Below the pieces are notes generated by a model. It was not told the origin of the DNA. It worked only from the letters and a program-made list of their open reading frames with translations, and made no database searches. 64,000 nt of DNA from Patescibacteria group bacterium. GTDB taxonomy: Bacteria; Patescibacteriota; JAQUNI01. Position numbers and translations under genes: made by a program. Location of the stretch: contig JAQUNI010000001.1 in assembly GCA_028717685.1 (NCBI GenBank), forward strand, positions 481,094 through 545,093, in the 5' to 3' direction. Below are positions 3,131 through 30,598 of this stretch, piece by piece. Every line of letters starts with the position of its first letter. The stretch's first letter is position 1.

Positions 3131-3195
3131 TCATTGCGTCACTCTAAATACAAGACCTTAAACCCAGGCTTCAAGGTTTAAACCTGCTAAATAAG

Positions 3196-4058: not shown

Positions 4059-4075
4059 TGGTTCGGCCCCGCTCC

Positions 4076-4110
4076 GCCGAAGTCCGCCTTGGGTGGACGG
4101 AGGCGAGCAA
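4076..4110 (+). repeat. structured GC-rich repeat (ccgccgaagtccgcct..ggcggacg.aggcga), copy 1, just 3' of gene 3312-4058
   Basis: ccgccgaagtccgccttgggtggacggaggcgagc; 29/33 match to 12477-12511. Confidence 0.5.
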
Positions 4111-5360: not shown

Positions 5361-6420
5361 TCAAAAATGATTAGAAAACAAAGGGCGTATGGCGAATGCC
5401 TTGACTTAAAGAGACGATGAAGGACGTAGCAGGCTGCGATAAGCCTCGGGGAGCTGCCAAGCAAGCTTTGATCCGAGGATTTCCGAATGGGGAAACCCTA
5501 TGTAGAAAACCTACATAATCCGCCCAAATTTTTGGACTGTTAAAAATAAAAAGCTCCTCAAAAGGGGAGCATGTTAAAAAAATTGCTGGCAAAAGTGCTA
5601 AAAAAGGAGAGAGGTTGGAATTAATCTCTTGGGGACATAGGAGCTCCTTAGTCTATTTGGCGCGCGCCTTTAGCTCCACAATTCCAGACTTCACTTTCTC
5701 TCCTTTCGTCATGTTTCTTAGAATCTCCTACGTTCAAGAAACTATCTGTAGCTGTATTGCTACTAATAGTATATAGCAAATTCAAAAAATCATCAACAGT
5801 CTAAAAATTTGGGCGGAAGACAACCCGGGGAACTGAAACATCTTAGTACCCGGAGGAAAAGAAAAAAAATCCGCGCTTTGCGCGGAACATTCCCTGAGTA
5901 GTGGCGAGCGAAAGGGGAAGAGCCTAAACCTGTCGCCGCAACTCACTGTGTTCCCCTCACATCCGTTCGGGGTAAACTTTTCAGTTTACTCCGATGAGCG
6001 AAGCGACGAGGAGAGCCTAGCGAGTTGCGACGGCCGGGGTTATAAGACGAATACGCTATCAGGGCAACCTGGTACAGAGTTTAATAAAATGCGACTTGCC
6101 TAGCAGAAGGCGCCTGGAACGGCCCACCAAAGAAGGTAAAAGTCCTGTACGCGAAAAGCGTTGCATCTCTGACGTATCTCGTTCTTGAGTACTACACCAC
6201 CAGGGAAATGGTGTAGGAAGTCGGGAGTACTACTAAAGTCGCTCCTCACTTTTGTTCGGAGCTCCTTAAATTTAAAATGCAAAATGAAAAATGCAAAATT
6301 AAGGTAGAAAATTTTGCTTCGCAAAATTTTATTAATTTTAAATTTTGAATTTGTAATTTTAAATTGGAACGACGAGCGAAAGCGAGGAGCGATCTCCCAA
6401 GGCTAAATACTCTTTAAGAT

Positions 6421-6457
<37 letters not shown>

Positions 6458-8891
6458 CATCCCGGTGAGGGAGATGAAATAGTATCTGAAACCATACGCT
6501 TACAAAGAGTGGGAGCCACCGTGCCTCACTGCGTTCGGCACGGAATTTCTAATTTCTAATTAACCGAATTTCTAATCAATTTCTAATGCCTTAATGTCTA
6601 ATGTCCAAAAATTTTTGGTCATTGGGTTATTGGTCATTGGGATTTGATTAGAAATTAAAAATTAGAAATTAGTCATTCCGCCACGCCGAGCATAGCGAGG
6701 CGCGGTGGTGACCGCGTGCTTTTTGTAGAACGAACCAACGAGTTAGCTGTGTATTGCTCGTATAAGTCCGTTTTAAGCGGACGTATGCAAAGTGAAAGCG
6801 AGCGTTAATAGCGCGTTTTAATTCATTAGGCAAATAGAATTCTTCTGTTTGCCTTAATAATTAAAGGCAGTACGCACTAGACCCGAAGCCAGACGAGCTA
6901 GCCTTGGTCAGGGTGAACTTTGGGTAACACCAAAGGGAGGCCCGCACCCATTGGTCGTGTAAAGCCATGGGATGAACTGAGGCTAGAGGAGAAATTCCAA
7001 TCGAGTCTGGTGATAGCTGGTTCTCCCCGAAATAGCTTTAGGGCTAGCGTCCTATTTACAAATTTGGAGGTAGAGCACTGGATGGAGCAGGATGGGATTA
7101 CTCCCTACCTGTCCCAACTAAACTCCGAATTCCAAACTTTTACGATAGGGCAGTCAGAACGGCGCGGATAAGCGCGTCGCTCAAAAGGGAAACAGCCCAG
7201 ATTCTTATCTAAGGTCCCTAAGTTCAAGTTAAGTGGTAAAGGAAGTGAGATTACAGAGACAATTAGGAGGTTGGCTTAGAAGCAGCCATCCTTTAAAGAA
7301 AGCGTAACAGCTCACTAATCGATCGTGATCTTGCGCCGAAAATGTAACGGGGCTCAAACTTGACACCGAAGATAGAAACCGTTGCTCCGCAACGGAAGCT
7401 CCAATAATCAAGAATCAAATTCCAAACAAGAACCAATAACCGAAATTCAAATAACCAAACAATCTGGTTTTGAACTTTGGAAATTGGGATTTAAGATTTG
7501 TTTGGAAATTGGGATTTAAGATTTGGAATTTCCGCCGCGGAGCGGCGGTGGTAGGGGAGCATTCTATATCCAGTAAAGCCAGCCTGTAAGGACTGGTGGA
7601 GGATATAGAAGAGAGAATGTTGGTATGAGTAACCTAAAGTCCGGTGCGAAACCGGACCACCGTAAGTCTAAGGTTTCCTGGGCAACGTTAATCAACCCAG
7701 GGTTAGTCGATCCTAAGTCGCAAAAAACGACGATGGAAGAGTAGGTTAATATTCCTACACTACTATTAATTTTGACGGAGGGACGCCACAGGATAGATTT
7801 CGTGTCCTAATGGTTTAGGCATTGCTGATCCGTAGCCGGAAGAAACAGGCAAATCCGTTTCTTCAATTCCAAACGGCGAAGATTATCAAAAGGTTTATTC
7901 CGCAAGGAATAGGTCAATGAAATTGATTCCAGTGGCCAAGAAAAACTCCTAAAATTAGATTAATAGTACTCGTACCGTAAACCAACACAGGTAGACGGGT
8001 AGAGGATACCAAGGTGTTCGGGTGATCCTTAGCTAAGGAATTCGGCAAAACAACTAGGTGTAAGTTCGCAAGATACCTTGCCTCAAAACATTTCGCTTGC
8101 GCTTCGTGTTTCTTAAGAAATCCCAAAAATCAAGCGCCAAGCATCAAACAAATTACAAACAGAAAAATTCCAAGCTTAAAAGGGTTTGGAATTTAGGAAA
8201 TCGAAATTTAAGATTTGTTTGTCTGGCTTCGCCAGATCTCGCGAGAAGCGAGAAAAATTATGATTTGGGATTTTGAGCACGGAGCGCTAGCGGAGTGCGT
8301 ATGGGGTCGCAGTTAAAGATCCAGGACGACTGTTTACCAAAAACACAGGTCCCTGCAAAGCCAATAAGGCAAAGTATAGGGGCTGACGCTTGGCCAGTGT
8401 CGGAACGTTAAGAGCGGGGGTGAAAGCTCTCGCTTTAAGCGCCGATGAACGCCGGCCGTAACTATAACGGTCCTATGGTAGCGAAATCCCTCGTCACTTG
8501 ATTAGTGACCTGCACGAACAGCGGAACGATCCTGGAACTGTCTTAGCTAAGTGCCCGGTGAAATTGCATTTGCCGGTAAAGATGCCGGCTAGCTGTATCA
8601 AGACGAAAAGACCCCGTGGAGCTTTACTATAGCTTGGTATTGATTTGAGGTTTTGGATGCCGAGAATAGGTGGGAGACTTTGAGCGTCAGCTTTCGGGCT
8701 GACGGGAGTCGCAATATGGAATACCACCCTTTCGGAGTCTTAAATCTAACCCCTTACCTAGCAAGGATTTTTGTGGTAAATTAAGAAATTTTAATCGGAT
8801 TTATATTGTGCCTTAATTACTTAAAAATTCTTAATACTTTAGCGAGCCTAAAGGCTCGTATCTTTGCTAGGTGAGGGGGAAAGTGCCTGGT

Positions 8892-8926
<35 letters not shown>

Positions 8927-9079
8927 CAACGGAGGCGCGTATAAGGTTCCCTTGCTCCGGATGGAAACCGGAGTGAAAGTGTAAAGGCATAAGGGAGCCC
9001 TGCTGCGAGGGGTACATCCCGAGCAGTTACGAAAGTAGACCTTAATGATCCGACTCTTACTTGTAGGAGTGGAGAAGCC

Positions 9080-9114
<35 letters not shown>

Positions 9115-9156
9115 GTCGCGCCCAATAGTCCACATAGACGGCGCGGTTCGGCACCT

Positions 9157-9546
9157 CAACAACATCGGGGTGCCATGGCAGTAATGCCATAACAAAAATC
9201 TGACTTATAACGGTGAAGCCCTAATTCTTTTAATATCTTTTGTGGCATAAGTGATATAATAAGTAAAAGAGATAAATATAAAAGAATGGGTAATACCGTG
9301 GGAAGTTTAACTCAATTTCAAGGCCAAAGTTAAGAAAGATTCTGAATGAAAATATCATTCCATCTATGAAATATAAAATTGAGTTATAACCCCGTAGAGA
9401 CTTGTCCCTAAGGAGGGACGGATAGAAGTGGTGAATCAAATAAATTAAATTACGGCTTCTATAATATGTCAGCCCCCTCACTTTTTAAAGGGGAGGGGTG
9501 AAGATATAGTCCGATCCTCTTAGTAATAAGAGAAAATGCCGACAAG
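9157..9546 (+). other. putative ORF-less group I intron in 23S (between GGCACCU and CGAUGUCGGCUC, peptidyl-transferase region, around E. coli position 2500)
   Basis: 390 nt insertion splitting the invariant GGCACCUCGAUGUCGGCUC block; upstream exon ends in U, insertion ends in G; no ORF. Confidence 0.6.
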
Positions 9547-10949: not shown

Positions 10950-11066
10950 TTCGGTGATTCTAGCGGAGGGGTTCCACTTGTTCCCATTTCGAACACAAAA
11001 GTTAAGCCCTCCAGCGCCGATGGTAGTGCCTCCCACGGGAGGCGCAAGAGTAGGTCATTGCCGGAA
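10950..11066 (+). rRNA. rrf: 5S rRNA (boundaries approximate)
   Basis: Conserved 5S core ...CCACTTGTTCCCATTTCGAACACAAAAGTTAAGCCCTCCAGCGCCGATGGTAGT...GAGAGTAGG. Confidence 0.75.
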
Positions 11067-11166: not shown

Positions 11167-12087
11167 TCAATGTCTCTTAGATTTTGGTTTCCTTTTTATG
11201 CGTTGGCTGATAAACTCTGAATGATATTTTAATGGTTTCCCATAGCTAATCAAAGCTTCAACTAAATAACCTCCGGTGGTAATACTATTTTTATCACAGC
11301 CATTTTTAAAAGTACCAGGTCGCACTACTTGAATGCCATATTTTTTAAATGACCCCCGTCCATGACGGTGTCCGATTTGTAAAACTAAAACACTTACAGT
11401 CCAACTCCGCCCGTCTATGCTAACTTTTTTGCCATCTTTTAATACCTCTGATTGCAGGAAATCTCCAGCGCTTTTACCATTGGTTAAATGGACCATTATT
11501 ATCGCTGTACCAGCAATAATAACATTGCATTCCAGACTGTTCAGGTAATAAAAATTATGCATCCACTTTTCAAGCATAATCAGAGGATTGACTAGCCCTG
11601 CTTTCTCTACCGCTACCGTGTGATTACCTTTGTTCCCAATATATGTTAAAGGGTACACTGATAAAACATCACAAAGCCTTTTTGCTTGATCTATAGGGGC
11701 AAGGTACCGTAATTGGCTTTCCTGCCCCGGATACAAACCCTCTATTAAATCTCCACTGATAAAAACATATTTACAGCCCTCGTCCTGAGCCGTCCTCAAA
11801 AAATGGCGCAAGCCTGCTTCATCAAAAAATACTGACCCGCAATGCAAATCTGAAGCCGCACCCCATTTTAAGATACACTCTCCTTTTTCTGCTTCGCTAA
11901 TTACCAGAGAAGCACTGTCATCTTGCGCTGGTATATAGTATTTATCACCCCCATCGCTATCCTGCACACGAACTGGATAACCCAAAGCAGACATCTCCAA
12001 GATTTCTGATCCGGTTAGGTCCAACTCCTTGAGACTACAAGGATTATTAAACATTCTTTGCGCAGCCGATTCTATGGACACGGGCAT
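11167..12087 (-). CDS. calcineurin-like metallophosphoesterase
   Basis: Phosphoesterase signature blocks GDLIEG...GNKGNHT...GHRHG spread over 306 aa. Confidence 0.65.
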   Translation of the reverse strand: MPVSIESAAQRMFNNPCSLKELDLTGSEILEMSALGYPVRVQDSDGGDKYYIPAQDDSASLVISEAEKGECILKWGAASDLHCGSVFFDEAGLRHFLRTAQDEGCKYVFISGDLIEGLYPGQESQLRYLAPIDQAKRLCDVLSVYPLTYIGNKGNHTVAVEKAGLVNPLIMLEKWMHNFYYLNSLECNVIIAGTAIIMVHLTNGKSAGDFLQSEVLKDGKKVSIDGRSWTVSVLVLQIGHRHGRGSFKKYGIQVVRPGTFKNGCDKNSITTGGYLVEALISYGKPLKYHSEFISQRIKRKPKSKRH

Positions 12088-12381
12088 CCTCCTTAAAGCT
12101 CATGGAAAGAACATGCTTTAATAACTTTTTACATCTATGCGCCACATATCTCAAAAATAAACTATCCCAGTTAATATGTCAAACCTATTAGCCCCTCACC
12201 TAGAAAAGATAGAAATCGTGTAGGTGAAGGGTTTGACTTTACGACTTTAAAAAATTATGATGAGAGAGGAAGGGTCGCATAGTGGTCTAGTGCGGCGCAC
12301 TCGCCCCGAGATAAACTCGGGGCGCCACGGGTTTATCCCGTGGCGAAAAATTTATATGTTTATTATATAATATAATTCAAT

Positions 12382-12469
12382 GGAGAGGTGGCCGAGTGGC
12401 TTAAGGCGACGGTCTCGAACACCGTTTGGGTCTAAAAGCCCACGTGGGTTCAAATCCCACCCTCTCCGC
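12382..12469 (+). tRNA. tRNA-Ser (anticodon CGA), long variable arm
   Basis: Acceptor ggagagg/cctctcc, D-arm gccgagtggcttaaggc, anticodon stem acggt/accgt loop ctCGAac, long variable arm, T-arm gtggg-ttcaaat-cccac. Confidence 0.85.
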
Positions 12470-12476
12470 CTTCGGT

Positions 12477-12511
12477 CCGCCGAAGTCCGCCTCAGGCGGA
12501 CGAAGGCGACC
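12477..12511 (+). repeat. structured GC-rich repeat, copy 2, just 3' of tRNA-Ser
   Basis: ccgccgaagtccgcctcaggcggacgaaggcgacc; nested inverted repeats. Confidence 0.5.
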
Positions 12512-12565
12512 TTCGCCCGCCCTTAAGAAGCATTTATAAAAACTTAAAAATTAACAACAAGTATT

Positions 12566-12979
12566 ATGAAAATAGGAATAATCGGCTCAATGCAATTTAC
12601 CGAAAAAATGCTTGAGGTAAGAGAAAAACTGCGGGAATTGGGTCATGATGCTTTTCTCACAGATTCACATAAAGCAATGGTGGGTAAGACCGATGACGAG
12701 ATTGAAAAAATCAAGCTTCATCAAAAATACAATATGGACGCCATTCGTAAATTCTGGAAAATGATGCAGGGAGCTGACGCTGTTCTTATTTTGAATCTTG
12801 ATAAGAACGGCATCAAAAATTATATTGGGGGAAATACCTTAATGGAAATCGGTTTTGCCCATGTTCTGAATCAAAGAATCTTTATGTTAAACCCAATTCC
12901 CGAAATGCCATATTGCAAAACTGAAATTGAAGCTGTAAAGCCGATTATTCTTAATGGAGATTTAACAAAAATAAAGTAG
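12566..12979 (+). CDS. nucleoside 2-deoxyribosyltransferase-like / DNPH1 (Rcl)-like small hydrolase fold protein
   Basis: MKIGIIGSM N-terminus and C-terminal ADAVLILNLD....GGNTLMEIGFAHVLNQRIFML matching the NDT-family motif (DxxLA.LDG...GTxFEiGyA..lgKPv). Confidence 0.55.
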   Translation: MKIGIIGSMQFTEKMLEVREKLRELGHDAFLTDSHKAMVGKTDDEIEKIKLHQKYNMDAIRKFWKMMQGADAVLILNLDKNGIKNYIGGNTLMEIGFAHVLNQRIFMLNPIPEMPYCKTEIEAVKPIILNGDLTKIK

Positions 12980-12993
12980 GCAGTGAGGAAATG

Positions 12994-13024
12994 CTGGTTT
13001 AAGTGCGTATAATATTCAAGAATT
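12994..13024 (+). repeat. intergenic element 'X' (gtttaagYgcgtataatattcaagaatt), copy 1
   Basis: ctggtttaagtgcgtataatattcaagaatt; 29/31 identical to 14374-14404. Confidence 0.6.
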
Positions 13025-13109
13025 TGTATTCTTTATAAACACAACGCGTATAACAATGAGTTATGTAAAATTACCAATAAATTTACACTCTAAAATTTAA
13101 CATTATTTT

Positions 13110-13814
13110 ATGTCAGACAAAACTGAAGGGACATTTGTCCCAGAACAAGAAAAAAGGAGGGGTATAGAAGTCCTAAATTTGCCAGAAGTTAGAGTAAGCT
13201 CTGCTTCATTCGCTAGAATTCGTGATAGCCAAGGAAGATACGCGCTTCTTGTAAACAAAAATAGGGCAAAAAAGGGAGACATCTTACTAACTCCGATTGG
13301 TGGCGCAATTGAAACCACTGAAGAAGGTTTACAAACCCTTCAACAACTTCTTGAAATTGAAAAAATTGCGTTTGAAAAAGGAAATGATTTACGCTTCCGT
13401 ATGCCAGGAAAAAAAGCCAATGAATTTAGGGCATGGTTTCTTCAAAGACAACAGAGAGAGACGAACCCAATAAGAGAAGTTGTTGAAGAACTTGTTGATG
13501 AGGCAGAGCTATTAAAAAGAGAAGATCTTGGTGAGCTTCAGTGTGGCTTGGTCGGCTTTGATGCTGAGCTGGAGGAAACAACACGTATAGGGCAAGAAGG
13601 GCAAATGACCCTGCGCTTGTTGGAAATATTTGAGGCAGGATTAAAAGCTGAAATTATAACTAAATTAGAAGAATTATCTAATCAACCAAACGCAGTTATC
13701 TATTTTGTAACCGCCGAAGAAATACAAGCTGGACAAACTAATGATGGAATTAAGATTAGTAAATCATCCAACTCTCTGCTGAATCCAAAAAAAACGATAG
13801 AACCGTTCATATAA
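13110..13814 (+). CDS. hypothetical protein; possible Nudix-fold with degenerate Nudix box
   Basis: YALLVNK...DILLTPIGGAIETTEEGLQTLQQLLEIEKIAF resembles the Nudix box (GX5EX7REUXEEXGU) but RE and one E of EE are replaced; low confidence. Confidence 0.3.
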   Translation: MSDKTEGTFVPEQEKRRGIEVLNLPEVRVSSASFARIRDSQGRYALLVNKNRAKKGDILLTPIGGAIETTEEGLQTLQQLLEIEKIAFEKGNDLRFRMPGKKANEFRAWFLQRQQRETNPIREVVEELVDEAELLKREDLGELQCGLVGFDAELEETTRIGQEGQMTLRLLEIFEAGLKAEIITKLEELSNQPNAVIYFVTAEEIQAGQTNDGIKISKSSNSLLNPKKTIEPFI

Positions 13815-13842
13815 ATTTATTGGCAACATTACATAACAGCAT

Positions 13843-13912
13843 ATATCTGGCTCGCTCCCTGCAGTCAATTGACTCATATTCACTTCAGGTGGACATCAGA
13901 TATACACAAACG
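13843..13912 (+). repeat. conserved about 70 nt intergenic element 'Y', copy A
   Basis: tatatctggctcgctccctgcagtcaattgactcatattcacttcaggtggacatcagatatacacaaacg; related copies at 14916-14988 and 15838-15906. Confidence 0.6.
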
Positions 13913-14012
13913 TTGAATAAAATACCACTTACATTTCAAGGGGTGGAATTCAAATTGATGATAAATTTATAAAATCGCATTAGAAAATTATTAACTACTA
14001 ACGAAAAAACAA

Positions 14013-14351
14013 ATGGAAAACTTGGAACAAGAGAGTGGAGATATTCATACCAAAGAAGTTGAGAGGAACAATATTGATATCGAAGAAATCAAAAGGTTTT
14101 ATGATGTGATAGGCACCAAAATGCGTAATTTCACAAGACCATCCGGAAAACTGAATGTGGAAGCCTATGGAAGATTTATGGATTTTATGGATAAATTGGA
14201 AGAGAAATACGGGAAAGAAGAATTACGAAAATATGCGGCATGGCAGGCGGCAAGCGGCAGCAGTATTTTAGAGGACGAATTTATTGACATCACGGGGCTT
14301 GATCTTCCGGGTGAAGATTCCATAGAGAATTTTTTTGACTCACAAAAATGA
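14013..14351 (+). CDS. hypothetical acidic protein (paralog 1 of tandem pair)
   Basis: 112 aa, MENLEQESG...; about 55% identical to the downstream gene, with duplicated 5' leader. Confidence 0.5.
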   Translation: MENLEQESGDIHTKEVERNNIDIEEIKRFYDVIGTKMRNFTRPSGKLNVEAYGRFMDFMDKLEEKYGKEELRKYAAWQAASGSSILEDEFIDITGLDLPGEDSIENFFDSQK

Positions 14352-14373
14352 GCTGTCCGCCAATTAGGGAACG

Positions 14374-14404
14374 CCAGTTTAAGCGCGTATAATATTCAAG
14401 AATT
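14374..14404 (+). repeat. intergenic element 'X', copy 2
   Basis: ccagtttaagcgcgtataatattcaagaatt. Confidence 0.6.
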
Positions 14405-14513
14405 AAGATTTTTTCAGAAAACAATTCATATAAGAACGAGTTAAACGAAATTTTGCTCAACAAATATTTTTTATTTTTTATTAAAAAATTATTAACTACT
14501 AACGAAAAAACAA

Positions 14514-14852
14514 ATGGAAAACTTGGAACAAGAGAGTGGAAATATCTATACCGAAAAAATTGAGAGGAACAATATTGATATCGAAGAAATCAAAAGGTTT
14601 TATGATATGATAAGAACCAAAATGGAGAATGCCATAAGTCCATCCGGAGAACTGAGCGAGGAAGCCTGGGACAAACTTACGGATTTTATTCAACAATTGA
14701 AAAACAAATACGGGCAAGAAGAATTACAAAAATGCGCGGCATTCCATGCGGCAACCGGCAGTGGTATTCCCGAGGGTAAATTGGTTGATATCACAAGGCT
14801 TGATTTTCCGGGCGGAGATTCCATAGAGGATTTTTTGGACTCGCAAAAATGA
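14514..14852 (+). CDS. hypothetical acidic protein (paralog 2 of tandem pair)
   Basis: 112 aa, same N-terminus (MENLEQESG.I.T...ERNNIDIEEIKRFYD) and C-terminus (DSIE.F.DSQK) as 14013-14351. Confidence 0.5.
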   Translation: MENLEQESGNIYTEKIERNNIDIEEIKRFYDMIRTKMENAISPSGELSEEAWDKLTDFIQQLKNKYGQEELQKCAAFHAATGSGIPEGKLVDITRLDFPGGDSIEDFLDSQK

Positions 14853-14915
14853 ACAGGCTCGGATAATATTTTTCCTATCGGCAAAATAAAACTTTTCATT
14901 ACATCCAGTGACAGT

Positions 14916-14988
14916 ATATATCTGGCTCGCTTATTATAGTCACTCGAATCATATCCACCTAAGGCGGACATCAGATACACGTACACGC
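14916..14988 (+). repeat. intergenic element 'Y', copy B
   Basis: tatatctggctcgcttattatagtcactcgaatcatatccacctaaggcggacatcagatacacgtacacg. Confidence 0.6.
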
Positions 14989-14995
14989 AAATATT

Positions 14996-15808
14996 GTGCG
15001 CAATCAACAACCTAAAATTATGGATCAAAGCATACTTACAGAATGTGGAAAATTTGCAACCGAGTTGGCGAAAAACGCAGGAAGTCTGATCAAAAAACAC
15101 TTTGAGCAAAAATTAAATAAGACCAAAAAGGATAAAGAAGAAAGGAATTTTGTCACAAGAGCAGACCTTGAGTCAGAGGAATTCATCATCAACAGTATCA
15201 AAAAGGAATTTCCTGACCATAATATCTTAGCCGAGGAATCTGGGTCTCTCACGTCTCTATCAGGGTTTATTTGGATAGTTGATCCTCTTGATGGAACAAC
15301 AAACTTTTCAAGAAATTTGCCATTTTTCACGATTTCTATCGCACTCGCAAAAAATGATCGGGTTATTCTAGGCATTGTATATCAACCAATCAATGACGAG
15401 TTGTTTTATGCTGAAAAGGGAAAGGGAGCGTTCCTGAATGCAAAAAGAATTATCGTATCTGAAAATCACTCCTTATCAAAATCAATAGTCTCTCAAAGCT
15501 TTGATTATTCTAATAAAAAGAGAAGAGACAATATCAAAAATATACAGAAAATCTTCTTTTTGATTGAAGGTTTCAGATTGCTTCATTCAACCGCGTTGGA
15601 ACTTTGTTATGTTGCATCGGGACGATATGATGGATATATGATCTCAAGCGCAAACCCATGGGACATTGCGGCTGGGGCATTAATCGTGGAAGAAGCTGGT
15701 GGATCTGTGACTAAATTTGATGGTACACAATGGGAATTGATGCGCCCAAGGATTGTTGCTACGAATGGATTAATTCACAAAGAACTTCTAAAGAAAATAA
15801 ATACCTAG
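14996..15808 (+). CDS. inositol monophosphatase family protein (SuhB/CysQ-like)
   Basis: IMPase motifs IWIVDPLDGTTNF and WDIAAGALIVEEAGG. Confidence 0.8.
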   Translation: MRNQQPKIMDQSILTECGKFATELAKNAGSLIKKHFEQKLNKTKKDKEERNFVTRADLESEEFIINSIKKEFPDHNILAEESGSLTSLSGFIWIVDPLDGTTNFSRNLPFFTISIALAKNDRVILGIVYQPINDELFYAEKGKGAFLNAKRIIVSENHSLSKSIVSQSFDYSNKKRRDNIKNIQKIFFLIEGFRLLHSTALELCYVASGRYDGYMISSANPWDIAAGALIVEEAGGSVTKFDGTQWELMRPRIVATNGLIHKELLKKINT

Positions 15809-15837
15809 CAAGGATTGACTGCGCCCAACAGCGACTA

Positions 15838-15906
15838 TGCGGTTTCGCTCCCTTGCAGTCGCTCCACCCACATTCACTTCAGGCGGACATCGGATATCCG
15901 CGAACG
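15838..15906 (+). repeat. intergenic element 'Y', copy C
   Basis: gcggtttcgctcccttgcagtcgctccacccacattcacttcaggcggacatcggatatccgcgaacg. Confidence 0.55.
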
Positions 15907-15997
15907 TTATTGGCGATCTTTCGGGCTTAAAGAAAGGAGATAAGAAAGATTTGTTATTCATTATTTAAATAACAATGTTAAAAACATCGGAGGGTAT

Positions 15998-17998
15998 ATG
16001 AAAAAAATTCTAATCTTATTCTGCGCTCTAGTGGCTATTTTTTGGGCTATCCCAGTAATTCCAGATGCCAAAGCCGAGGACTTACCGAGCGGGGTTATTC
16101 CTAAACTGCCCAAGACGGCGAATGACCCTATTCTTTCCGAAGGCAAAATTTATCCTTTTTGGGGACCAGTATGCCAAAGATACACTTATTCTGTAATTTA
16201 CAGCGATAAAGAAGGCAGGACGCCGGAATATGTTAAGATTTATTTCAACGGCAAAATGATAGATATGGAAAAAGCGGACGCGAACGATAATAATTACAAA
16301 AAAGGAGTGAAATATATTTACAAGAATGTTCCGAATAAATTTGGTTCTAATTTTTATTATTTTGAGGCTTCAAATGGACTGGGCAAGACGCGCGATTCAA
16401 TTATTGACTCGCCAGATAACGGACCAGTGCTTTTTGATGCTGATTTTAAAGAGAATGAAATTATTTTGATTGATCCTGAAAGTGGAAACCTAAAGTGGCG
16501 CTATCCAATTCAAGAAGAGTGGGTCGGCGGAGTCGCGCTGTCTGATGATGGCAGATACTTGGCGGCGCAAACTTCCAATCATATTTACTTTTTTGACACG
16601 GAAAAAAGTGAGCCTTCTTGGAGCTATCAAAGTCCGACCGGCGGCGCGATAGGCGGAGATGTTAAAGGCGGAGTAGCGATTTCCGCTCGCGGCGATAAAA
16701 TTTTTGCCGCTTTAAACGGTAAGGCGTTGATGTTTGATCAAAACTCTAATCAGCCTATCTGGACCTATAATTTAGGTAATAATGGCGGAGGCGCTTATGG
16801 CGTGGACATTGCTAAAAACGGTGCATACGCGGCAGTGGCAATGGCTGGTTCGGAAGAAGACCTAAATAGCAATGTTTTGATCTTATTTGACGCCAAGGAT
16901 AAAAAGTTATGGCAATATCATTCCGCGGGCAACTGGCATGAGGTTAATTTATCACAAGATGGTTCATATATTGCCGGATCAACAGGTTGTCCGGATCGAA
17001 GGGGTTATCTTTTTACTAAAGACTCGGCTGAACCAATAATCAAGTCTGAACCTTTATCTAAAGAATCGCCAATTGACGAAACGCGAATATCGGCAGATGG
17101 CAGTTTAATCGCTTTCGGGGTTGAGTCAGGTTATGGTGCGATTGTTTTAATGGACGCGCAAAAAAAGGAAATTTTATGGAAATATGAAACTTCCCAGGGA
17201 ACATCTGTACGCGCGTTAGCAATGGCACCTAGTGGAAACTTGATTGGCGCTGGCACTTTTGGCGGCGATATTTTAATTTTTGAAAAAAATTCAAATAAGC
17301 CGATTGAAAAATTAAAAATTAATTCCACAATCGGCGCTTTTGATATAACGGATGATGGATTACTTTTTGCGACTGGTTCGGCTGATAAGAAAATCCGGGT
17401 ATTTGAAAAGGGAGCTGGCAAAGCAAAAGCGGAAATTTCAGCGAATGAATACGTCGGAGAATTAGATATCGCGGCAAATGGAAAATATTTAGCCGCAGGC
17501 ACAAGCGGCGCGGTATATTTTTTTGAAACGATCAGGGATTTGGAAAATAAGGGAGTTTTTGCCTGCAAGGAAATTATAGAACCCAAAGCAGAAGACACTA
17601 CATTGTTCGGTGGACAAAATAGCGGGAATAATTTGGCGGACAGTGCAGATAATCAAGAAAAACCAGTGAAAAAAGAAACGTCTTCTTGGCTTACGCGGGG
17701 CGCGATAATTTTTGGAGGAATATTGATAATTGCGCTTTTTGGCTACATTTTGATTTGCCGCAAACGCGCGCGACCGCCCAAAAAGTTGATTATCATTTTA
17801 ATATCATTTTCAATAATACTGGCTTTGATAGTTGTTTTTTACTTTGGACAATGGAAAAATGTTGAATCTGATAAAAGCTTAGATCAAGGCCAAATTAAAA
17901 AAGAAGGGCAGGAAAATATCTGTGGAAATACTTTGTGCGAGCCCAATTTGGGGGAAACAAAGGAGAATTGCGCCAAAGACTGCTTAGGCGGGGAATAA
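15998..17998 (+). CDS. secreted beta-propeller (PQQ/BamB-like repeat) surface protein with C-terminal TM anchor; paralog A
   Basis: Signal peptide MKKILILFCALVAIFWAIPVIPDAKAED; repeated (Y/F)xFD...P(I/L)W.Y blades; two C-terminal hydrophobic helices; Cys-rich tail. Confidence 0.5.
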   Translation: MKKILILFCALVAIFWAIPVIPDAKAEDLPSGVIPKLPKTANDPILSEGKIYPFWGPVCQRYTYSVIYSDKEGRTPEYVKIYFNGKMIDMEKADANDNNYKKGVKYIYKNVPNKFGSNFYYFEASNGLGKTRDSIIDSPDNGPVLFDADFKENEIILIDPESGNLKWRYPIQEEWVGGVALSDDGRYLAAQTSNHIYFFDTEKSEPSWSYQSPTGGAIGGDVKGGVAISARGDKIFAALNGKALMFDQNSNQPIWTYNLGNNGGGAYGVDIAKNGAYAAVAMAGSEEDLNSNVLILFDAKDKKLWQYHSAGNWHEVNLSQDGSYIAGSTGCPDRRGYLFTKDSAEPIIKSEPLSKESPIDETRISADGSLIAFGVESGYGAIVLMDAQKKEILWKYETSQGTSVRALAMAPSGNLIGAGTFGGDILIFEKNSNKPIEKLKINSTIGAFDITDDGLLFATGSADKKIRVFEKGAGKAKAEISANEYVGELDIAANGKYLAAGTSGAVYFFETIRDLENKGVFACKEIIEPKAEDTTLFGGQNSGNNLADSADNQEKPVKKETSSWLTRGAIIFGGILIIALFGYILICRKRARPPKKLIIILISFSIILALIVVFYFGQWKNVESDKSLDQGQIKKEGQENICGNTLCEPNLGETKENCAKDCLGGE

Positions 17999-18038: not shown

Positions 18039-19964
18039 ATGAAAAAAAATTTAATCTTATTCTGCGCTCTAGTTGCTCTTTTTTGGGCTATCCCAGTAAT
18101 TCCAGACGCCAAAGCCGAGGATAAGCCAGCCGAATTAAATAATCAGCCGGCGGCTCAAATTTTCCCTAAATTGCCGACCACGCCCGATGACCCCCATTTG
18201 GATGACGCCAAGGTTTATCCGATGTGGGGACCGCTTTGCATGCGCTATACTTATTCCGTGGTTTATCAAGACGATAAAAACCGCGCGCCGGAATATATGA
18301 GGATGTATTTTAACGGCAAATGGCTTGACCTTGCAAAAGAAAACAAGAACGATTCTGATTACAAAAAGGGGGTAAAATATGTTTACAAGTTTGTGCCTAA
18401 TAAACTGGGCTCAAATTTCTATTTCTTTGAAGCTTCAAATGGCAAGGGCAAAGCGCGCGACGGGATTATTGATTCACCAGACAATGGGCCGGTTCTGTTT
18501 GAAACTGATTTTTCCCAAAATGAGATTGCCTTGATTGACCCGAAATCTGGCCAAAAATTATGGAGTTATCCCACCCACAAAGAATGGGTAAAAGGAGTAG
18601 CCCTTTCCGACGATGGCAAATATTTAGCGGCGACTACCACCAAACATATTTATTTCTTTGAAACGAGCAAGCAGAATCCGCTTTGGAGTTATCAGTATCA
18701 AGGCAGTTTTGATGTGGAAAACAATGATGTCAAAGGCGGCGTTGACGTTTCCGTCGATGGTTCCAAAATCTTTGCCCTGATTGGCAAATACGCTATTTTG
18801 TTTTCCAAAGATTCAAATCAACCAATCTGGCAGAAGGATGTCAAACAACAAGGCTACAACACGGCTATTTCGGCTGACGGGAAATATATGGCTGCGGGCA
18901 CGGCGGGGGATGAGAAAAATGTTGATACCAATTTATTAATATTATGGAGCGAAAAGAGCGCGACCCCCTTGTGGCAGTACCACGCCGCTGGCAACTTTCA
19001 TGATGTTTCTTTGTCTTTTGACGGCTCATATATTGCCGGAGCAACCGGCTGCCCCGACCGACGCGCCTATATTTTTTCCAAGGATTCAAACGAGCCAGTG
19101 ATGAGAAGCGATATGCTAGCCGAAGATTCTCCGGTCAACCGAGCTAAAATTTCAGCTGACGGGAAATACGTGGCTTACTCGGCTGAATATAACAAAGGTA
19201 TTGCCTTTTTGTTTAAAAATCCAAAATTTGGCGGCTCAAACCAGCCTGTCTGGAAACTTTTACCGCCCAGCCAACGTTCAGGCCGAGCTTTGGCAATGAC
19301 ACCGGATGCTAAAACCATCTTAGAAACAACTTTCGCGGGTGATGTTCTGACTCTTGGCCTTGCTTCAAATCAACCAACTGCTTATTGGAAGTATCCCAAT
19401 CCAATTGCCGCCGCCGATTTAAGCGACGATGGCAGGTTAATCGCTGTCGGCGGAACGGCGGAAAGAGTCTATCTCATTGACGGCGATTCCAAAAAACAAA
19501 CGGCGGAGGTTCAATTTTCAGAATATATCAGCGAAATTGATGTGGCAGGCGACGGCAAATATGTGGCGGCTGGCACTGGCGGCGCTAATTATTTTTTTGA
19601 ATCTTTTAGCCAAAATGAGAATAAAAAGGTTAGTTGCGATAAAGTTATTGAGCCGGAGCCGGAGATGGTCCAGGATCAAACCGATTCCAAGCTTTACGAC
19701 GGCGTTCAAGATGTTGATCAAAACTTGTCCGGCGGCAACGAGGTTAAACAATTTACGCAAAAAAATTGGCTCATTATTGTCTCAACCTTGGCTTGCTTAA
19801 TAATTTTGTTCTCAATAATTTTTGGCAAAACCAGAAAAAAATATTGGCTCATTATTATTATTTTGCTGATTATCGCTTTGGTATTGAGCTTAATTTTTTT
19901 CCGCAAACCTCCAAAATCTGATTTAGAAAAAACCGAACAGGGTACTCAATTAGAAAACCAATGA
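18039..19964 (+). CDS. secreted beta-propeller surface protein, paralog B of 15998-17998
   Basis: Near-identical signal peptide and N-terminal domain (YTYSV.Y.D...PEY...YFNGK...KKGVKY.YK.VPNK.GSNFY.FEASNG), same repeat architecture and C-terminal TM. Confidence 0.5.
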   Translation: MKKNLILFCALVALFWAIPVIPDAKAEDKPAELNNQPAAQIFPKLPTTPDDPHLDDAKVYPMWGPLCMRYTYSVVYQDDKNRAPEYMRMYFNGKWLDLAKENKNDSDYKKGVKYVYKFVPNKLGSNFYFFEASNGKGKARDGIIDSPDNGPVLFETDFSQNEIALIDPKSGQKLWSYPTHKEWVKGVALSDDGKYLAATTTKHIYFFETSKQNPLWSYQYQGSFDVENNDVKGGVDVSVDGSKIFALIGKYAILFSKDSNQPIWQKDVKQQGYNTAISADGKYMAAGTAGDEKNVDTNLLILWSEKSATPLWQYHAAGNFHDVSLSFDGSYIAGATGCPDRRAYIFSKDSNEPVMRSDMLAEDSPVNRAKISADGKYVAYSAEYNKGIAFLFKNPKFGGSNQPVWKLLPPSQRSGRALAMTPDAKTILETTFAGDVLTLGLASNQPTAYWKYPNPIAAADLSDDGRLIAVGGTAERVYLIDGDSKKQTAEVQFSEYISEIDVAGDGKYVAAGTGGANYFFESFSQNENKKVSCDKVIEPEPEMVQDQTDSKLYDGVQDVDQNLSGGNEVKQFTQKNWLIIVSTLACLIILFSIIFGKTRKKYWLIIIILLIIALVLSLIFFRKPPKSDLEKTEQGTQLENQ

Positions 19965-24236: not shown

Positions 24237-24632
24237 ATGTTCAAATTCAAATTATTCTCCACTATAATCCTTGCCCTACTCGGAATATCTTTAGTCTTAA
24301 ACCTAGCCCACGCGGCTTTAGTGCCTTGCGGCGGCACGGGTCAACCGGAGTGCAATCTTTGCCATTTTTTTGTCTTAATCCAAACTATCTTTAAATATCT
24401 GCTGGGATTTCTGGGAATCGTGGCGCTGCTCATCTTTGTCATCATCGGCTTTATGTTTTTATTCGGTTCCACCAATGAAGGTCTGCTCACTACCGGCAAA
24501 AAGGCTCTGACCTCCGCGATAATCGGTCTTGTCCTGGTGCTCGTCGCTTGGCTTATAATCAACACTGTGGGCTACGCCATAGGTTGGGCGCAAAAAGGCA
24601 GCTGGTGGACATTTAATTGCGTATCAGAATAA
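24237..24632 (+). CDS. VirB2/TrbC-like two-TM pilin-family protein (member 1 of array)
   Basis: Signal peptide, 4-Cys loop (PCGGTGQPEC.LC), two hydrophobic helices separated by FGSTNEGLLTTGKKAL loop. Confidence 0.45.
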   Translation: MFKFKLFSTIILALLGISLVLNLAHAALVPCGGTGQPECNLCHFFVLIQTIFKYLLGFLGIVALLIFVIIGFMFLFGSTNEGLLTTGKKALTSAIIGLVLVLVAWLIINTVGYAIGWAQKGSWWTFNCVSE

Positions 24633-28536: not shown

Positions 28537-29070
28537 ATGAAAAAATCCAAATATCCGCAAATTTTCTGCTTGAGCATCTTCCTGCTCCTCTTTGGTTTTT
28601 CTGTTTTCACCGCAACGGCGCAAGATGAACCTACTGGATTACAACGCCCTGACGCCGCGGCGGCTGGACTGCCCGCGGGTGACTTCAAGGCTTTGATTAA
28701 CGGCATTGTAAAATGGGTGCTTTGGATCGCAGCGCCAGCTTGTTTAGTCGCTCTTGTTTACGGCGGGATGCGTTATGCCTTTGCCGGAGGAAGTGAAGAG
28801 AAGGCTGAAAATGCGAAGAAGATAATGAAATACGCAGTCATTGGCGTCGCGATCATCATCGCGGCTTACGCTATTGTCGGCTTAATCACCGCGCTTATTT
28901 CCGGCGAAGTGCCGGCAACGCCAGAAGTCAACGGAAGTAATGCCACTCCGAAACGATTTGCTGGCGGTTGCCCAAGTCTGGGACAAGGGGCTCGCTGTGT
29001 CAATGCTGACAATGTACAAAGTCTATGTAATTGTGAGACCACTGATCCTAATAGCTGTTACTGTCCTTGA
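28537..29070 (+). CDS. pilin-family protein with C-terminal 8-Cys knot-like tail
   Basis: Signal peptide; WVLWIAAPACLVALVYGGMRYAFAGGSEEKAENAKKIMKYAVIGVAIIIAAYAIVGL two-TM unit; C-terminal CPSLGQGARCVNADNVQSLCNCETTDPNSCYCP. Confidence 0.5.
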   Translation: MKKSKYPQIFCLSIFLLLFGFSVFTATAQDEPTGLQRPDAAAAGLPAGDFKALINGIVKWVLWIAAPACLVALVYGGMRYAFAGGSEEKAENAKKIMKYAVIGVAIIIAAYAIVGLITALISGEVPATPEVNGSNATPKRFAGGCPSLGQGARCVNADNVQSLCNCETTDPNSCYCP

Positions 29071-30133: not shown

Positions 30134-30598
30134 ATGTCTAAAATTATCAAAAGCGCATTTTTTCTAATTCTCCTAACCGCGCCTTTGTTCTTTGCTCAAG
30201 GCGCCGGAGAAGAACCTGAATATTATTGCACCAAAAAACAAGACAATGGCGAATTGAAAAAATGCACCTCCAATGCGCAATGCGTGGGTTTGGGCACCTG
30301 CGTCAAAGTGTATCATGGCGGTTTTCAGCCAGCATACAATCCCGATACCCCTAAAGCATGGATTACAGCAGGTTTAAACTGGTTCTTAGCCCTCGCCGCG
30401 ATTCTCTGTGTTGCCGTTTTGGTTTGGGCTGGTATTACTTATGCCACAGCCGGCGGAGATGAAGACAAAGTAGAAAAAGCCAAGAAGAGAATGATTTATG
30501 GAGTAATTGGGGTTGCTTTTATTATTGGCGCTTTTGCAATTACCCAGCTCATCAAAACTGGCCTAGAAGGGAATCTGCCTACTAGCCCCGCTTTGTAA
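30134..30598 (+). CDS. pilin-family protein with N-terminal 6-Cys module
   Basis: EYYCTKKQDNGELKKCTSNAQCVGLGTCVKVY then WFLALAAILCVAVLVWAGITYATAGGDEDKVEKAKKRMIYGVIGVAFIIGAFAITQL. Confidence 0.55.
   Translation: MSKIIKSAFFLILLTAPLFFAQGAGEEPEYYCTKKQDNGELKKCTSNAQCVGLGTCVKVYHGGFQPAYNPDTPKAWITAGLNWFLALAAILCVAVLVWAGITYATAGGDEDKVEKAKKRMIYGVIGVAFIIGAFAITQLIKTGLEGNLPTSPAL

Follow-up and report, generated by a model that had tools for sequence, protein, structure and literature searches.

Putative recombination sites of the Xer/integron type delimit a probable array of gene cassettes behind a tRNA-Ser gene in a Patescibacteria genome

What are the two conserved elements, X and Y, that alternate between the small genes following a tRNA-Ser(cga) gene in a Patescibacteria group bacterium? 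The locus lies within a stretch of 64 kb, in the following called the window, which was analysed from a 722-kb contig of a metagenome-assembled genome (MAG) carrying PHW01_ locus tags. It is situated 3' of an intron-bearing 23S rRNA gene, the 5S rRNA gene and tRNA-Ser(cga), about 28 kb from dnaA-dnaN-recF, and its GC content is 0.36-0.38 at 13-16 kb compared to about 0.41 for the whole window. Five open reading frames (ORFs), all on the + strand, follow the tRNA gene: gene137, the Sa_NUDIX gene gene234, two paralogs and an IMPase-family gene. A preliminary description of this DNA had placed the locus next to tRNA-Ser(CGA) and had given the order gene-X-gene-Y-gene-X-gene-Y-gene-Y; both the placement and the order, with two X and three Y elements, are correct. 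It had left X and Y as unexplained conserved elements, and its interpretation of the locus is supported in part. X and Y are the key to this locus: they are probably Xer/integron-type recombination sites that delimit gene cassettes. Between about 12.47 and 15.9 kb, the window likely contains a chromosomal, integron-like array of mobile cassettes and not an operon. All evidence on the array comes from comparing the sequence of the window with six metagenomic contigs, of which some labels (e.g., Pacearchaeota) may be binning errors.

The two copies of X align at 12981-13072 and 14361-14452 with 74% identity. Their 3' part is a dif-like core composed of an 11-bp left arm (C arm), a 7-nt spacer of the form NAAYGAG and an 11-bp right arm (D arm). 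In X1, the C arm AACGCGTATAA (13043-13053) is followed by the spacer CAATGAG (13054-13060) and the D arm TTATGTAAAAT (13061-13071), and in X2 the C arm AATTCATATAA (14423-14433) is followed by GAACGAG (14434-14440) and TTAAACGAAAT (14441-14451). A copy in the closest relative, contig L001, reads AATGCGCATAA-CAACGAG-TTGTAGAAAAT. The full core pattern occurs in the window only at 13047 and 14427. Within X, a second copy of the left arm is present about 40 nt upstream of the core; in X1 this is GTGCGTATAAT (13003-13013), directly followed by the box ATTCAAG (13014-13020). X resembles an attI site because a second C-arm repeat precedes the dif/pdif-like core. For Acinetobacter pdif sites, the oligonucleotides ACTTCGTATAA-TCGCCA-TTATGTTAAAT and ATTTCGCATAA-GGCGTA-TTATGCGAAAT are reported (PMC7399989). 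The D arms TTATGTAAAAT and TTATGCGAAAT as well as the C arms (A)TTCGTATA(A/G) and TGCGCATAA match the published pdif arms or are nearly identical to them, and the Sa_NUDIX cassette of L001 starts with exactly the sequence of the pdif right arm TTATGCGAAAT. The spacer of X has 7 nt in all six copies, compared to 6 bp in pdif.

The three copies of Y align at about 13836-13914, 14911-14989 and 15845-15908 with 69-79% identity. A BLAST search of the complete window with X and Y revealed no further copies, profiles built for nhmmer from the two halves of Y likewise added none in the window or in the contigs L004, L009 or L012, and Rfam gave no match for X or Y at gathering and permissive thresholds. 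Read with the junctions side by side, Y has the general plan [NACATC-RYYYAA]C-3 nt-[L''] ... centre ... [L']-6 nt-G/[TTRRRY-RAAAT], the slash marking the cassette junction here and below. Its 5' part comprises the stop codon, a cassette-specific stretch of 6-13 nt, NACATC, the R'' box RYYYAAC, a 3-nt spacer and the 9-nt box L'' (often TATATCTG). The 3' part comprises the complementary 9-nt box L', a 6-nt spacer ending in RAAC, the R' box G/TTRRRY, RAAAT, the complement of the cassette-specific stretch, a leader and the ATG. The spacers are unequal across the junctions (3-4 nt versus 6-7 nt), and the centre has a length of 10 to more than 300 nt and carries a conserved YCCCAWAT motif. R'' is complementary to the TTRRRY at the start of its own cassette and not to the adjacent R', and the match extends by up to 15 more bases, with a conserved 2x2 mismatch outside the R box in which GAAAT stands opposite ACATC.

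This anatomy is best seen in Y1, where the outer stem (13812-13824), an ACATT loop and the R'' box ACATAAC (13831-13837) precede L'' ATATATCTG (13841-13849), and where L' CAGATATAC (13897-13905), the spacer ACAAAC and G/TTGAATAAAAT form the 3' side. The two ends of the Sa_NUDIX cassette in front of it, 13060-13085 and 13812-13837, are complementary over 26 nt (88%), and the own-end match is 7/7 plus 12/13. In Y3, R'' is GCCCAAC, the L boxes pair at 6/9 positions and the junction reads CGAACG/TTATTGGCG; Y2 has an R''-like CAGTGAC, L boxes pairing at 7/9 positions and no 3' GTT. The outer boxes typical of attC sites are present in Y1 (ACATAAC...GTTGAAT), in Y3 (GCCCAAC...GTTATTG) and in L001 and other contigs (GCCTAAC...GTTAGGC and similar), and Y2 fails in this respect. 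The region between tRNA-Ser and gene137 (12471-12565) shows no recognisable TTRRRY-RAAAT cassette start.

The same Y architecture was found around unrelated genes in five other contigs from MAGs labelled as Patescibacteria or DPANN archaea (L011, L020, L023, L026 and L031), which were reached through homologs of Sa_NUDIX and gene137. The box sequences differ and the complementarity is kept, as in the L''/L' pairs GGCTATGCG/CGCATAGCC, GAATAACTG/CAGTTATTC and CATTAACAG/CTGTTAATG. The pairing of each cassette with its own end was compared with that to non-own cassettes in a permutation test comprising 17 cassettes from 6 contigs. The R box matched the own 5' end at 6.12/7 positions and the ends of other cassettes at 4.62/7 (permutation p<1e-5), the next 13 nt gave 8.65 matches with the own and 3.77 with other cassettes (permutation p<1e-5), and L'' paired with L' at 7.72/9 positions compared to 5.70/9 for non-own partners (p<1e-5), with 14 distinct L'' sequences among them. 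Moreover, at 12 in-register junctions 84.1% of the cells were paired compared to 61.4% upon shuffling (0/500) and 26-39% when the partner was slid; for this count the structure was derived from the same sequences and the centre was replaced by a GAAA linker, with both the slid and the shuffled controls far from the observed value. The covariation score was 0.600 versus 0.184, double changes were present at 26 of 33 pairs and G-U pairs were few. Helix 2, the L stem, was paired to 92.6% and showed double changes at 6/9 pairs. Folded alone as single-stranded DNA, X or Y gave z-scores near 0, and this picture changed once the cassette's own 5' end was included: the DNA folding energy with the own 5' end was well below that of every mismatched combination, e.g., -15.7 versus -9.3 kcal/mol for w_NUDIX, -20.0 versus -11.3 kcal/mol for l_217 and -33.1 versus -27.2 kcal/mol for l_TIR. 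The Sa_NUDIX cassette of L023 has a perfect own-end pairing (31 nt, 90%) and a perfect Y after the gene.

The centres of the sites can be large. In L011, an 84-aa ORF of the MtN3_slv/PQ-loop (SWEET-like) type lies inside the centre, between L'' and L', of two Y-type sites (2161-2415 and 5958-6212). A third centre of this contig (10922-11190) contains a different small ORF, and site centres can thus carry genes. The Sa_NUDIX homolog of L004, another Patescibacteria contig, has on either side a direct repeat of a different kind (57-120 and 917-975, about 60 nt), which includes a terminator-like hairpin and ends with GTTAGAGTTT; this repeat may represent a diverged cassette junction.

If X and Y delimit mobile units, homology between related genomes should break at them. 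The closest relative is a Doudnabacteria MAG (L001 and L002) with about 90% nucleotide identity. L001 and the window share tRNA-Ser and the 666-aa beta-propeller gene and differ in the set of genes in between; the order in L001 is tRNA-Ser, GIY-YIG-like (78 aa), TIR-like (289 aa), YobF_C (307 aa), 113 aa, 70 aa, Sa_NUDIX, 217 aa, 264 aa, two paralogs and the 666-aa gene. Neither gene137 nor IMPase is present in this interval, and a single hybrid Y is found where the window has the IMPase cassette. X-like or Y-like elements are located at every gene junction in L001. The Sa_NUDIX block common to both genomes (13061-13914 in the window, 93% identity) has different neighbours on both sides, and its limits are the TT of GAG/TTATGT and of ACG/TT, i.e., N/TT junctions. 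Furthermore, the 5' end of the paralog-1 cassette, TTGAATAAAATACCAC, also heads the YobF_C cassette of L001. The island behaviour suspected in the preliminary description, which had proposed comparing the tRNA-Ser locus across relatives, is borne out by this exchange of the gene set between the same anchors. A classical tRNA-integrated island was considered and rejected, as neither an integrase among the ORFs scanned nor a direct repeat of the tRNA 3' end was found; the 3' 24-mer of tRNA-Ser occurs once in the window even when up to 3 mismatches are allowed. Proximity of arrays or their cargo to tRNA genes is recurrent and not universal: tRNA-Ser(gga) immediately precedes a Sa_NUDIX gene in L012, the array of L031 follows a tRNA-Gly gene, and in L027 tRNA-Ser(cga) is located near gene137.

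Tyrosine recombinase genes adjoin related arrays in three contigs. L023 encodes a 271-aa tyrosine recombinase divergently from its Sa_NUDIX cassette, with an X homolog, alignable over about 70 nt, in between. In L026, a gene for a 269-aa recombinase is divergent from the gene137 cassette at the contig end, and in L031 a recombinase fragment is followed by an attI-like junction and three cassettes, the last one being gene137, up to the end of the contig. The recombinases of L023 and L026 are 43% identical. That of L023 scores 240 bits with the NCBIfam model XerA 'tyrosine recombinase/integron integrase' (cutoff 220) and 225 bits with the integron-integrase model TIGR02249, below the cutoff of 265. 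Its best PDB match is Vibrio IntI4 (6e-46), with Pyrococcus XerA close behind, and the best match of the L026 enzyme is XerA (4a8e, 6e-38), with IntI4 in third place. Two further observations concern the surroundings of these genes. In L023, inverted repeats of 193 nt (91-283 and 2164-2356; 98% complementary) enclose the recombinase gene, X, the Sa_NUDIX cassette and Y, and this unit may constitute a mobile or invertible 'mini-integron'. In L031, a 28-nt duplicate of the 3' end of tRNA-Gly (2945-2972 and 3136-3163, 86%) follows the tRNA at a distance of 191 nt and immediately precedes the recombinase fragment and the array; it looks like the scar of a tRNA-integrated element.

How could such sites work? 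It is known for the attC sites of integrons and for the hairpin attP of CTXphi that base pairing rebuilds a duplex core site. In integron cassettes the crossover at G/TT splits the attC site, and hence the own 5' end of a cassette complements its own inverse-core box. By analogy, each cassette of the array would start with an 11-bp TTRRRY-RAAAT resembling a Xer 'D arm' and end with a recombination site. Y would be an attC-like site made from two inverted core sites. In a circular or single-stranded cassette, the own 5' end would pair with the region ending at R'', and L'' with L', generating a duplex 'core site' with an unpaired spacer. X would act as a conventional double-stranded core of the dif/pdif type, comparable to attI. 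A tyrosine recombinase of the Xer/IntI family, cutting at the border of spacer and D arm (N/TT), might then excise, insert and shuffle cassettes.

Several observations weigh against this interpretation. In the window, no recombinase gene was found among the ORFs scanned; of the 67 listed ORFs with 100 aa or more, the scan covered about 38, including every non-overlapping one of roughly integrase size. The preliminary description had likewise reported no integrase. The recombinases associated with other arrays do not have the insertion specific for IntI: the alignment skips residues 183-240 of IntI4 and places only 15 residues there, i.e., about 43 are missing. The sites of the window are imperfect, with 6-8/9 positions of the L boxes paired and the GTT of Y2 lost, compared to 9/9 for sites beside recombinase genes, and paralog-2, IMPase and the 666-aa gene do not show own-end pairing. 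Folding of Y alone as single-stranded DNA is weak (z-scores between 0 and -1.3), the Y centres show sequence conservation and do not form simple hairpins, and extrahelical bases are not evident, the L stems being perfect or nearly so and free of bulges. The hybrid Y of L001 resembles the product of homologous recombination or gene conversion and not a clean G/TT event, which suggests homologous exchange between Y copies. Finally, the strict patterns of X and Y were found in the viral, genome and metagenome collections only in the same Doudnabacteria MAG, and the wider family is based on 6 contigs reached via cargo genes. The viral collection contained no matches to the strict patterns, and looser half-site patterns gave chance matches there, within coding sequence and without paired halves.

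The array is not called a canonical integron, since the associated recombinases do not have the integron-specific insertion, no recombinase was found among the ORFs scanned in the window and the sites are partly decayed. It is neither a canonical integron nor a dif-module system, and we would expect it to be an integron-like and dif-module-like variant related to both. Clusters of attC sites lacking an integron integrase are known as CALINs. Because of the missing recombinase and the partial decay of the sites, the window array is probably a CALIN-like cluster, which is either acted on in trans or a fossil.

The rival that has to be taken most seriously accepts the sites as described and explains them by purely double-stranded Xer recombination, a mechanism that has been proposed for the dif modules of Acinetobacter: the genes would be D modules and the Y centres tiny C modules, separated by dif-like sites of alternating orientation and moved or inverted by the housekeeping Xer enzymes. 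The core of X is indeed complete (C arm, spacer and D arm), its arms being nearly identical to those of pdif, Y is readable as a D/C site and a subsequent C/D site, and the 84-aa gene of L011 sits inside a Y centre as a C module would. The XerA-like recombinases without the IntI insertion and the lack of visible extrahelical bases fit as well. However, arms that are read by a protein should be conserved, whereas the L boxes and RRRY vary freely and yet covary within a cassette. The cassette-specific pairing moreover reaches 6-15 bp past any 11-bp arm, as a requirement for base pairing predicts. The spacers of 7 nt in X and of 3-4 versus 6-7 nt in Y differ from the 6 bp of pdif, and dif modules are reported solely on Rep_3/OrfX plasmids of Acinetobacter (PMC13141974). 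A purely double-stranded mechanism therefore appears unlikely to us, though it retains real weight. Folded DNA is favoured as the candidate substrate, because the arms show covariation, not conservation, in their variable parts and because the pairing extends beyond the protein-binding arm.

Both other explanations dispense with site-specific recombination. X and Y could be expression signals, i.e., promoters, terminators or 5'-3' stems for RNase III, which spread by duplication together with the genes. This would agree with a TATAAT within X, with the intergenic position of the elements and their orientation like that of the genes, with complementary sequences bracketing each ORF as in the processing stems of rRNA, and with the terminator hairpin in the repeats around the Sa_NUDIX homolog of L004. 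However, in a scan for sigma-70 promoters and terminators, promoter-like and terminator-like sites were not enriched in the arrays, G-U pairs are rare among the covarying pairs, which is unusual for RNA helices, and Rfam is without a match. Homology between the genomes breaks exactly at N/TT, the arms match dif/pdif, and tyrosine recombinase genes stand beside the first cassette in three contigs, so that we regard a role as expression signals as very improbable. As another possibility, the locus might be a by-product of tandem duplication and homologous recombination beside a tRNA gene, with X and Y as functionless leftover repeats. The paralogs and their leaders do represent a tandem duplication; the identical leader that the preliminary description had noted before both paralogs is real (37 nt, 14480-14516 versus 13979-14015, 97%), and only the start given for it was about 2 nt off. 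The hybrid Y of L001, suggestive of homologous exchange between Y copies, and the confinement of the strict forms of X and Y to one lineage would also fit. Leftovers would not covary, though, and in five other contigs the architecture is found again next to unrelated genes, with a different primary sequence and compensatory changes; the covariation already largely refutes this explanation, to which we give next to no credence.

If X and Y are recombination sites, to which known system is the array closest? It shares with integron arrays and CALINs the mostly single-gene cassettes on the same strand without promoter enrichment. Similar to integron attC sites, Y has outer boxes RYYYAAC...GTTRRRY, complementary inner boxes, an unpaired spacer and a centre of variable length (46 to about 400 nt), and structure is conserved more than sequence. 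As in integrons, the inferred crossover is at G/TT and the first bases of a cassette complement its own inverse-core box, and the first cassette of the relatives comes after a divergent tyrosine recombinase gene and an attI-like site, as in an integron platform. Defence-type cargo is also known from chromosomal integrons (bioRxiv 10.1101/2024.07.02.601686). In contrast to integrons, the associated recombinases are 269-271 aa long, XerA-like, devoid of the integron-specific insertion and below the cutoff of TIGR02249. Y differs from integron attC in that the pairing continues 6-15 bp past the R box over a 2x2 mismatch, in its spacers of 3-4 and 6-7 nt, in having no evident extrahelical bases and in its YCCCAWAT centres. 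Patescibacteria are not in the list of published integron-bearing phyla (PMC8618304).

The array likewise shares features with the dif modules of Acinetobacter, namely the nearly identical 11-bp arms, the alternating orientation of the sites with genes bracketed by D arms, and diverse accessory genes whose content differs between close relatives. Every Y reads as D/C site, centre and C/D site, which is the C/D alternation of dif modules. However, dif modules are described as unique to Acinetobacter (PMC13141974), whereas this locus lies on a Patescibacteria chromosome between rRNA and tRNA genes and not on a Rep_3/OrfX plasmid. It differs furthermore by the absence of a 6-bp spacer, the covarying inner arms, the long cassette-specific complementarity of the ends and the dedicated recombinase gene next to some arrays. 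Integrative mobile elements exploiting Xer (IMEX) of the CTXphi type also have two inverted dif-like half sites, about 50-150 nt apart, which can be folded into a core that mimics a duplex. Their integration is carried out by XerCD, which has no I2 domain, and proceeds without extrahelical bases (Escudero 2016, PMC4792948). Unlike in these elements, the sites described here bound many small gene cassettes in arrays and not a phage genome, and phage genes are absent.

Table 1. Features of the tRNA-Ser locus (window coordinates; a slash marks a cassette junction)
Feature	Position	Strand	Remarks
tRNA-Ser(cga)	12382-12470	+	Upstream anchor of the array, kept in L001; ARAGORN and Rfam
GC-rich hairpin region and remnant of the gene137-cassette leader (CGCCCGCC...CATTTATAAAAA)	12471-12565	+	Homologous to leaders in L026 and L031
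gene137, 137 aa	12566-12979	+	NDT/DNPH1-like; own attC-like site replaced by X1
X1	12981-13071	+	dif-like core; cassette junction 13060/13061
Sa_NUDIX cassette	13061-13912	+	ORF 13110-13814 (gene234, 234 aa)
Y1, attC-like	13812-13923	+	Junction 13912/13913
Paralog-1 cassette	13913-14440	+	ORF 14013-14351 (112 aa)
X2, dif-like core	14361-14451	+	
Paralog-2 cassette	14441-14987	+	ORF 14514-14852 (112 aa)
Y2, decayed attC-like site	14900-14987	+	
IMPase-family cassette	14988-15906	+	ORF 15020-15808; Pfam PF00459
Y3	15818-15917	+	Junction 15906/15907, into the 666-aa beta-propeller gene

The cargo of the window is a mixture of accessory genes: an NDT-like gene, a stand-alone Sa_NUDIX gene, two orphan acidic paralogs and an IMPase gene. 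The protein encoded by gene234 is a full-length Sa_NUDIX protein (Pfam PF18167, 3.5e-24, 86.3 bits compared to a cutoff of 25) and additionally matches the PADLOC Nudix models for effectors of the cyclic oligonucleotide-based antiphage signalling system (CBASS; 2TM-effector) and of defence-associated reverse transcriptases (DRT). The defence association proposed before is in line with these matches. However, the suspicion of an inactive Nudix protein, based on a substitution of RE by QL in the Nudix box, had been assigned to the wrong stretch: the real motif REVVEEL (R122, E123, E126, E127) is invariant across the family and REx2EE is intact. In 19 homologs with identities down to 30%, G64, G65, R122, E123, E126, E127, L128 and E131 are invariant. 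The protein resembles the Sa_NUDIX (PF18167) effectors of CBASS and DRT systems in its full-domain match and the invariant REx2EE, and differs from them in that it stands alone; no partner (CD-NTase/SMODS, transmembrane or reverse transcriptase protein) was found in the neighbourhood within the window or in eight homolog contexts. A CBASS operon was rejected, as no cyclase was found in these contexts. Defence-type cargo is also suggested in the cassettes of L001 by a weak TIR_2 match.

The product of gene137 probably has a fold like that of nucleoside 2'-deoxyribosyltransferases (NDT) and DNPH1, with E94 invariant within NTLMEIGFAH. The earlier assignment to this fold is plausible. The sequence match to PF05014 (15.8 bits) is below the Pfam cutoff of 28.8. 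Homologs of gene137 with 80-94% identity are spread over more than 100 clusters labelled as Patescibacteria, DPANN archaea and Marinimicrobia. They occur as a cassette beside a recombinase gene (L026, L031) and also within a housekeeping operon, mnmA-gene137-...-alaS (L034), and this degree of conservation is unusual for an uncharacterised protein of 137 aa. The two paralogs are acidic, have 112 aa each and share 63% amino acid identity. A word-indexed search resulted in 4 close homologs, and an exhaustive profile search in 73 distant ones of about 100 aa, some of which are tandem fusions; these 73 relatives belong to no Pfam family, and the paralogs are orphans. A match to a cadherin-repeat protein of 3500 aa is probably spurious, and the predicted structure of a 112-aa paralog was too poor to be used (predicted local distance difference test score 51). 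The last gene, already recognised as IMPase-family before, gives a clear match to PF00459 (244.9 bits, E 1.4e-72). The view of the locus as a nucleotide-centred module does not stand, as the genes are separately bounded cassettes which are found in other combinations elsewhere. Because they are independent cassettes, guilt-by-association among gene137, Sa_NUDIX and the paralogs is unwarranted.

The surroundings of the array show further peculiarities. Just upstream of tRNA-Ser, three GC-rich hairpins are located at 12262-12352 (minimum free energy as RNA -48.9 kcal/mol, z-score -6.0) in a block (12192-12470) that is about 87% identical in L001, and a promoter-like TTGACT-17-TATGAT at 12233 precedes them. 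The element corresponds to no Rfam family and no ARAGORN call; it could represent a small RNA, or else a processing element transcribed together with the tRNA. Directly behind tRNA-Ser, the hairpin 12476-12509 (TCCGCCGAAGTCCGCCTCAGGCGGAC...) has an 88% copy about 8 kb upstream (4073-4106). The hairpin is similar to the 3' part of the Y centres (CTTCAGGCGGAC), too, and may represent a short, dispersed repeat with a relationship to these sites. Between the 5S rRNA gene and tRNA-Ser, an ORF of 306 aa (11167-12087, - strand) is metallophosphoesterase-like, with weak matches to Metallophos_2 and to the small subunit of DNA polymerase II. It is missing in L001, where the 5S rRNA gene is directly followed by the pre-tRNA element, representing a second indel beside the array. 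The 23S rRNA match (5369-9237) comprises 3869 nt compared to 2925 nt of the model, indicating insertions or introns, and L002 encodes LAGLIDADG endonucleases there. The 5S rRNA gene (10950-11066) lies 1.7 kb downstream of the end of the 23S rRNA gene, and between tRNA-Ile (2676) and the 23S rRNA gene there is no 16S rRNA gene; this interval contains protein genes, among them those for an RNHCP domain protein and membrane proteins. The array is followed by two tandem paralogs of secreted or anchored beta-propeller proteins with 666 aa (15998-17998) and 641 aa (18039-19964), of which the relative has one. In L001 (13889-16022), this gene is followed by the 3' half of a Y (15974-16022), and the array may thus extend past the region first described; the variable region reaches an NTP-transferase gene (window 21759). 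Further downstream, three small ORFs with pilin domains of type IV secretion systems (TrbC/VirB2-like; 24237-24632, 28537-29070 and 30134-30598) are arranged around an ORF of 1239 aa.

What would the array mean for these organisms? Bacteria of the candidate phyla radiation (CPR)/Patescibacteria have tiny genomes, and their acquisition of accessory and defence genes is little understood. Full-text literature searches on integrons and attC sites in CPR/Patescibacteria yielded only resistome surveys and no description of such arrays. With rather less confidence than for the array itself, and somewhat below an even chance, we consider it possible that Patescibacteria, and perhaps DPANN archaea, have a hitherto undescribed form of cassette exchange, in which dif-armed, hairpin-forming attC-like sites and double-stranded attI/dif-like sites are recombined by enzymes related to XerA/IntI, which lack an I2 domain and do not depend on extrahelical bases. 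If confirmed, this would provide a mechanism for gene flux in these lineages, gene137 being 80-94% identical between bacterial and archaeal MAGs, and the signature NACATC-RYYYAAC ... G/TTRRRY-RAAAT could be used to mine a mobile gene pool. Escudero et al. (2016; PMC4792948) posed the 'chicken-and-egg' question of the origin and co-evolution of attC sites and the I2 domain of the integrase. If the proposed reading is true, the system would link Xer/dif recombination to integrons as a living intermediate and bear directly on this question. With hairpin sites, arms of the dif type and an IntI-like enzyme that is devoid of the integron-specific domain, it would, if confirmed, be a natural test case for the origin of integrons from Xer/dif systems.

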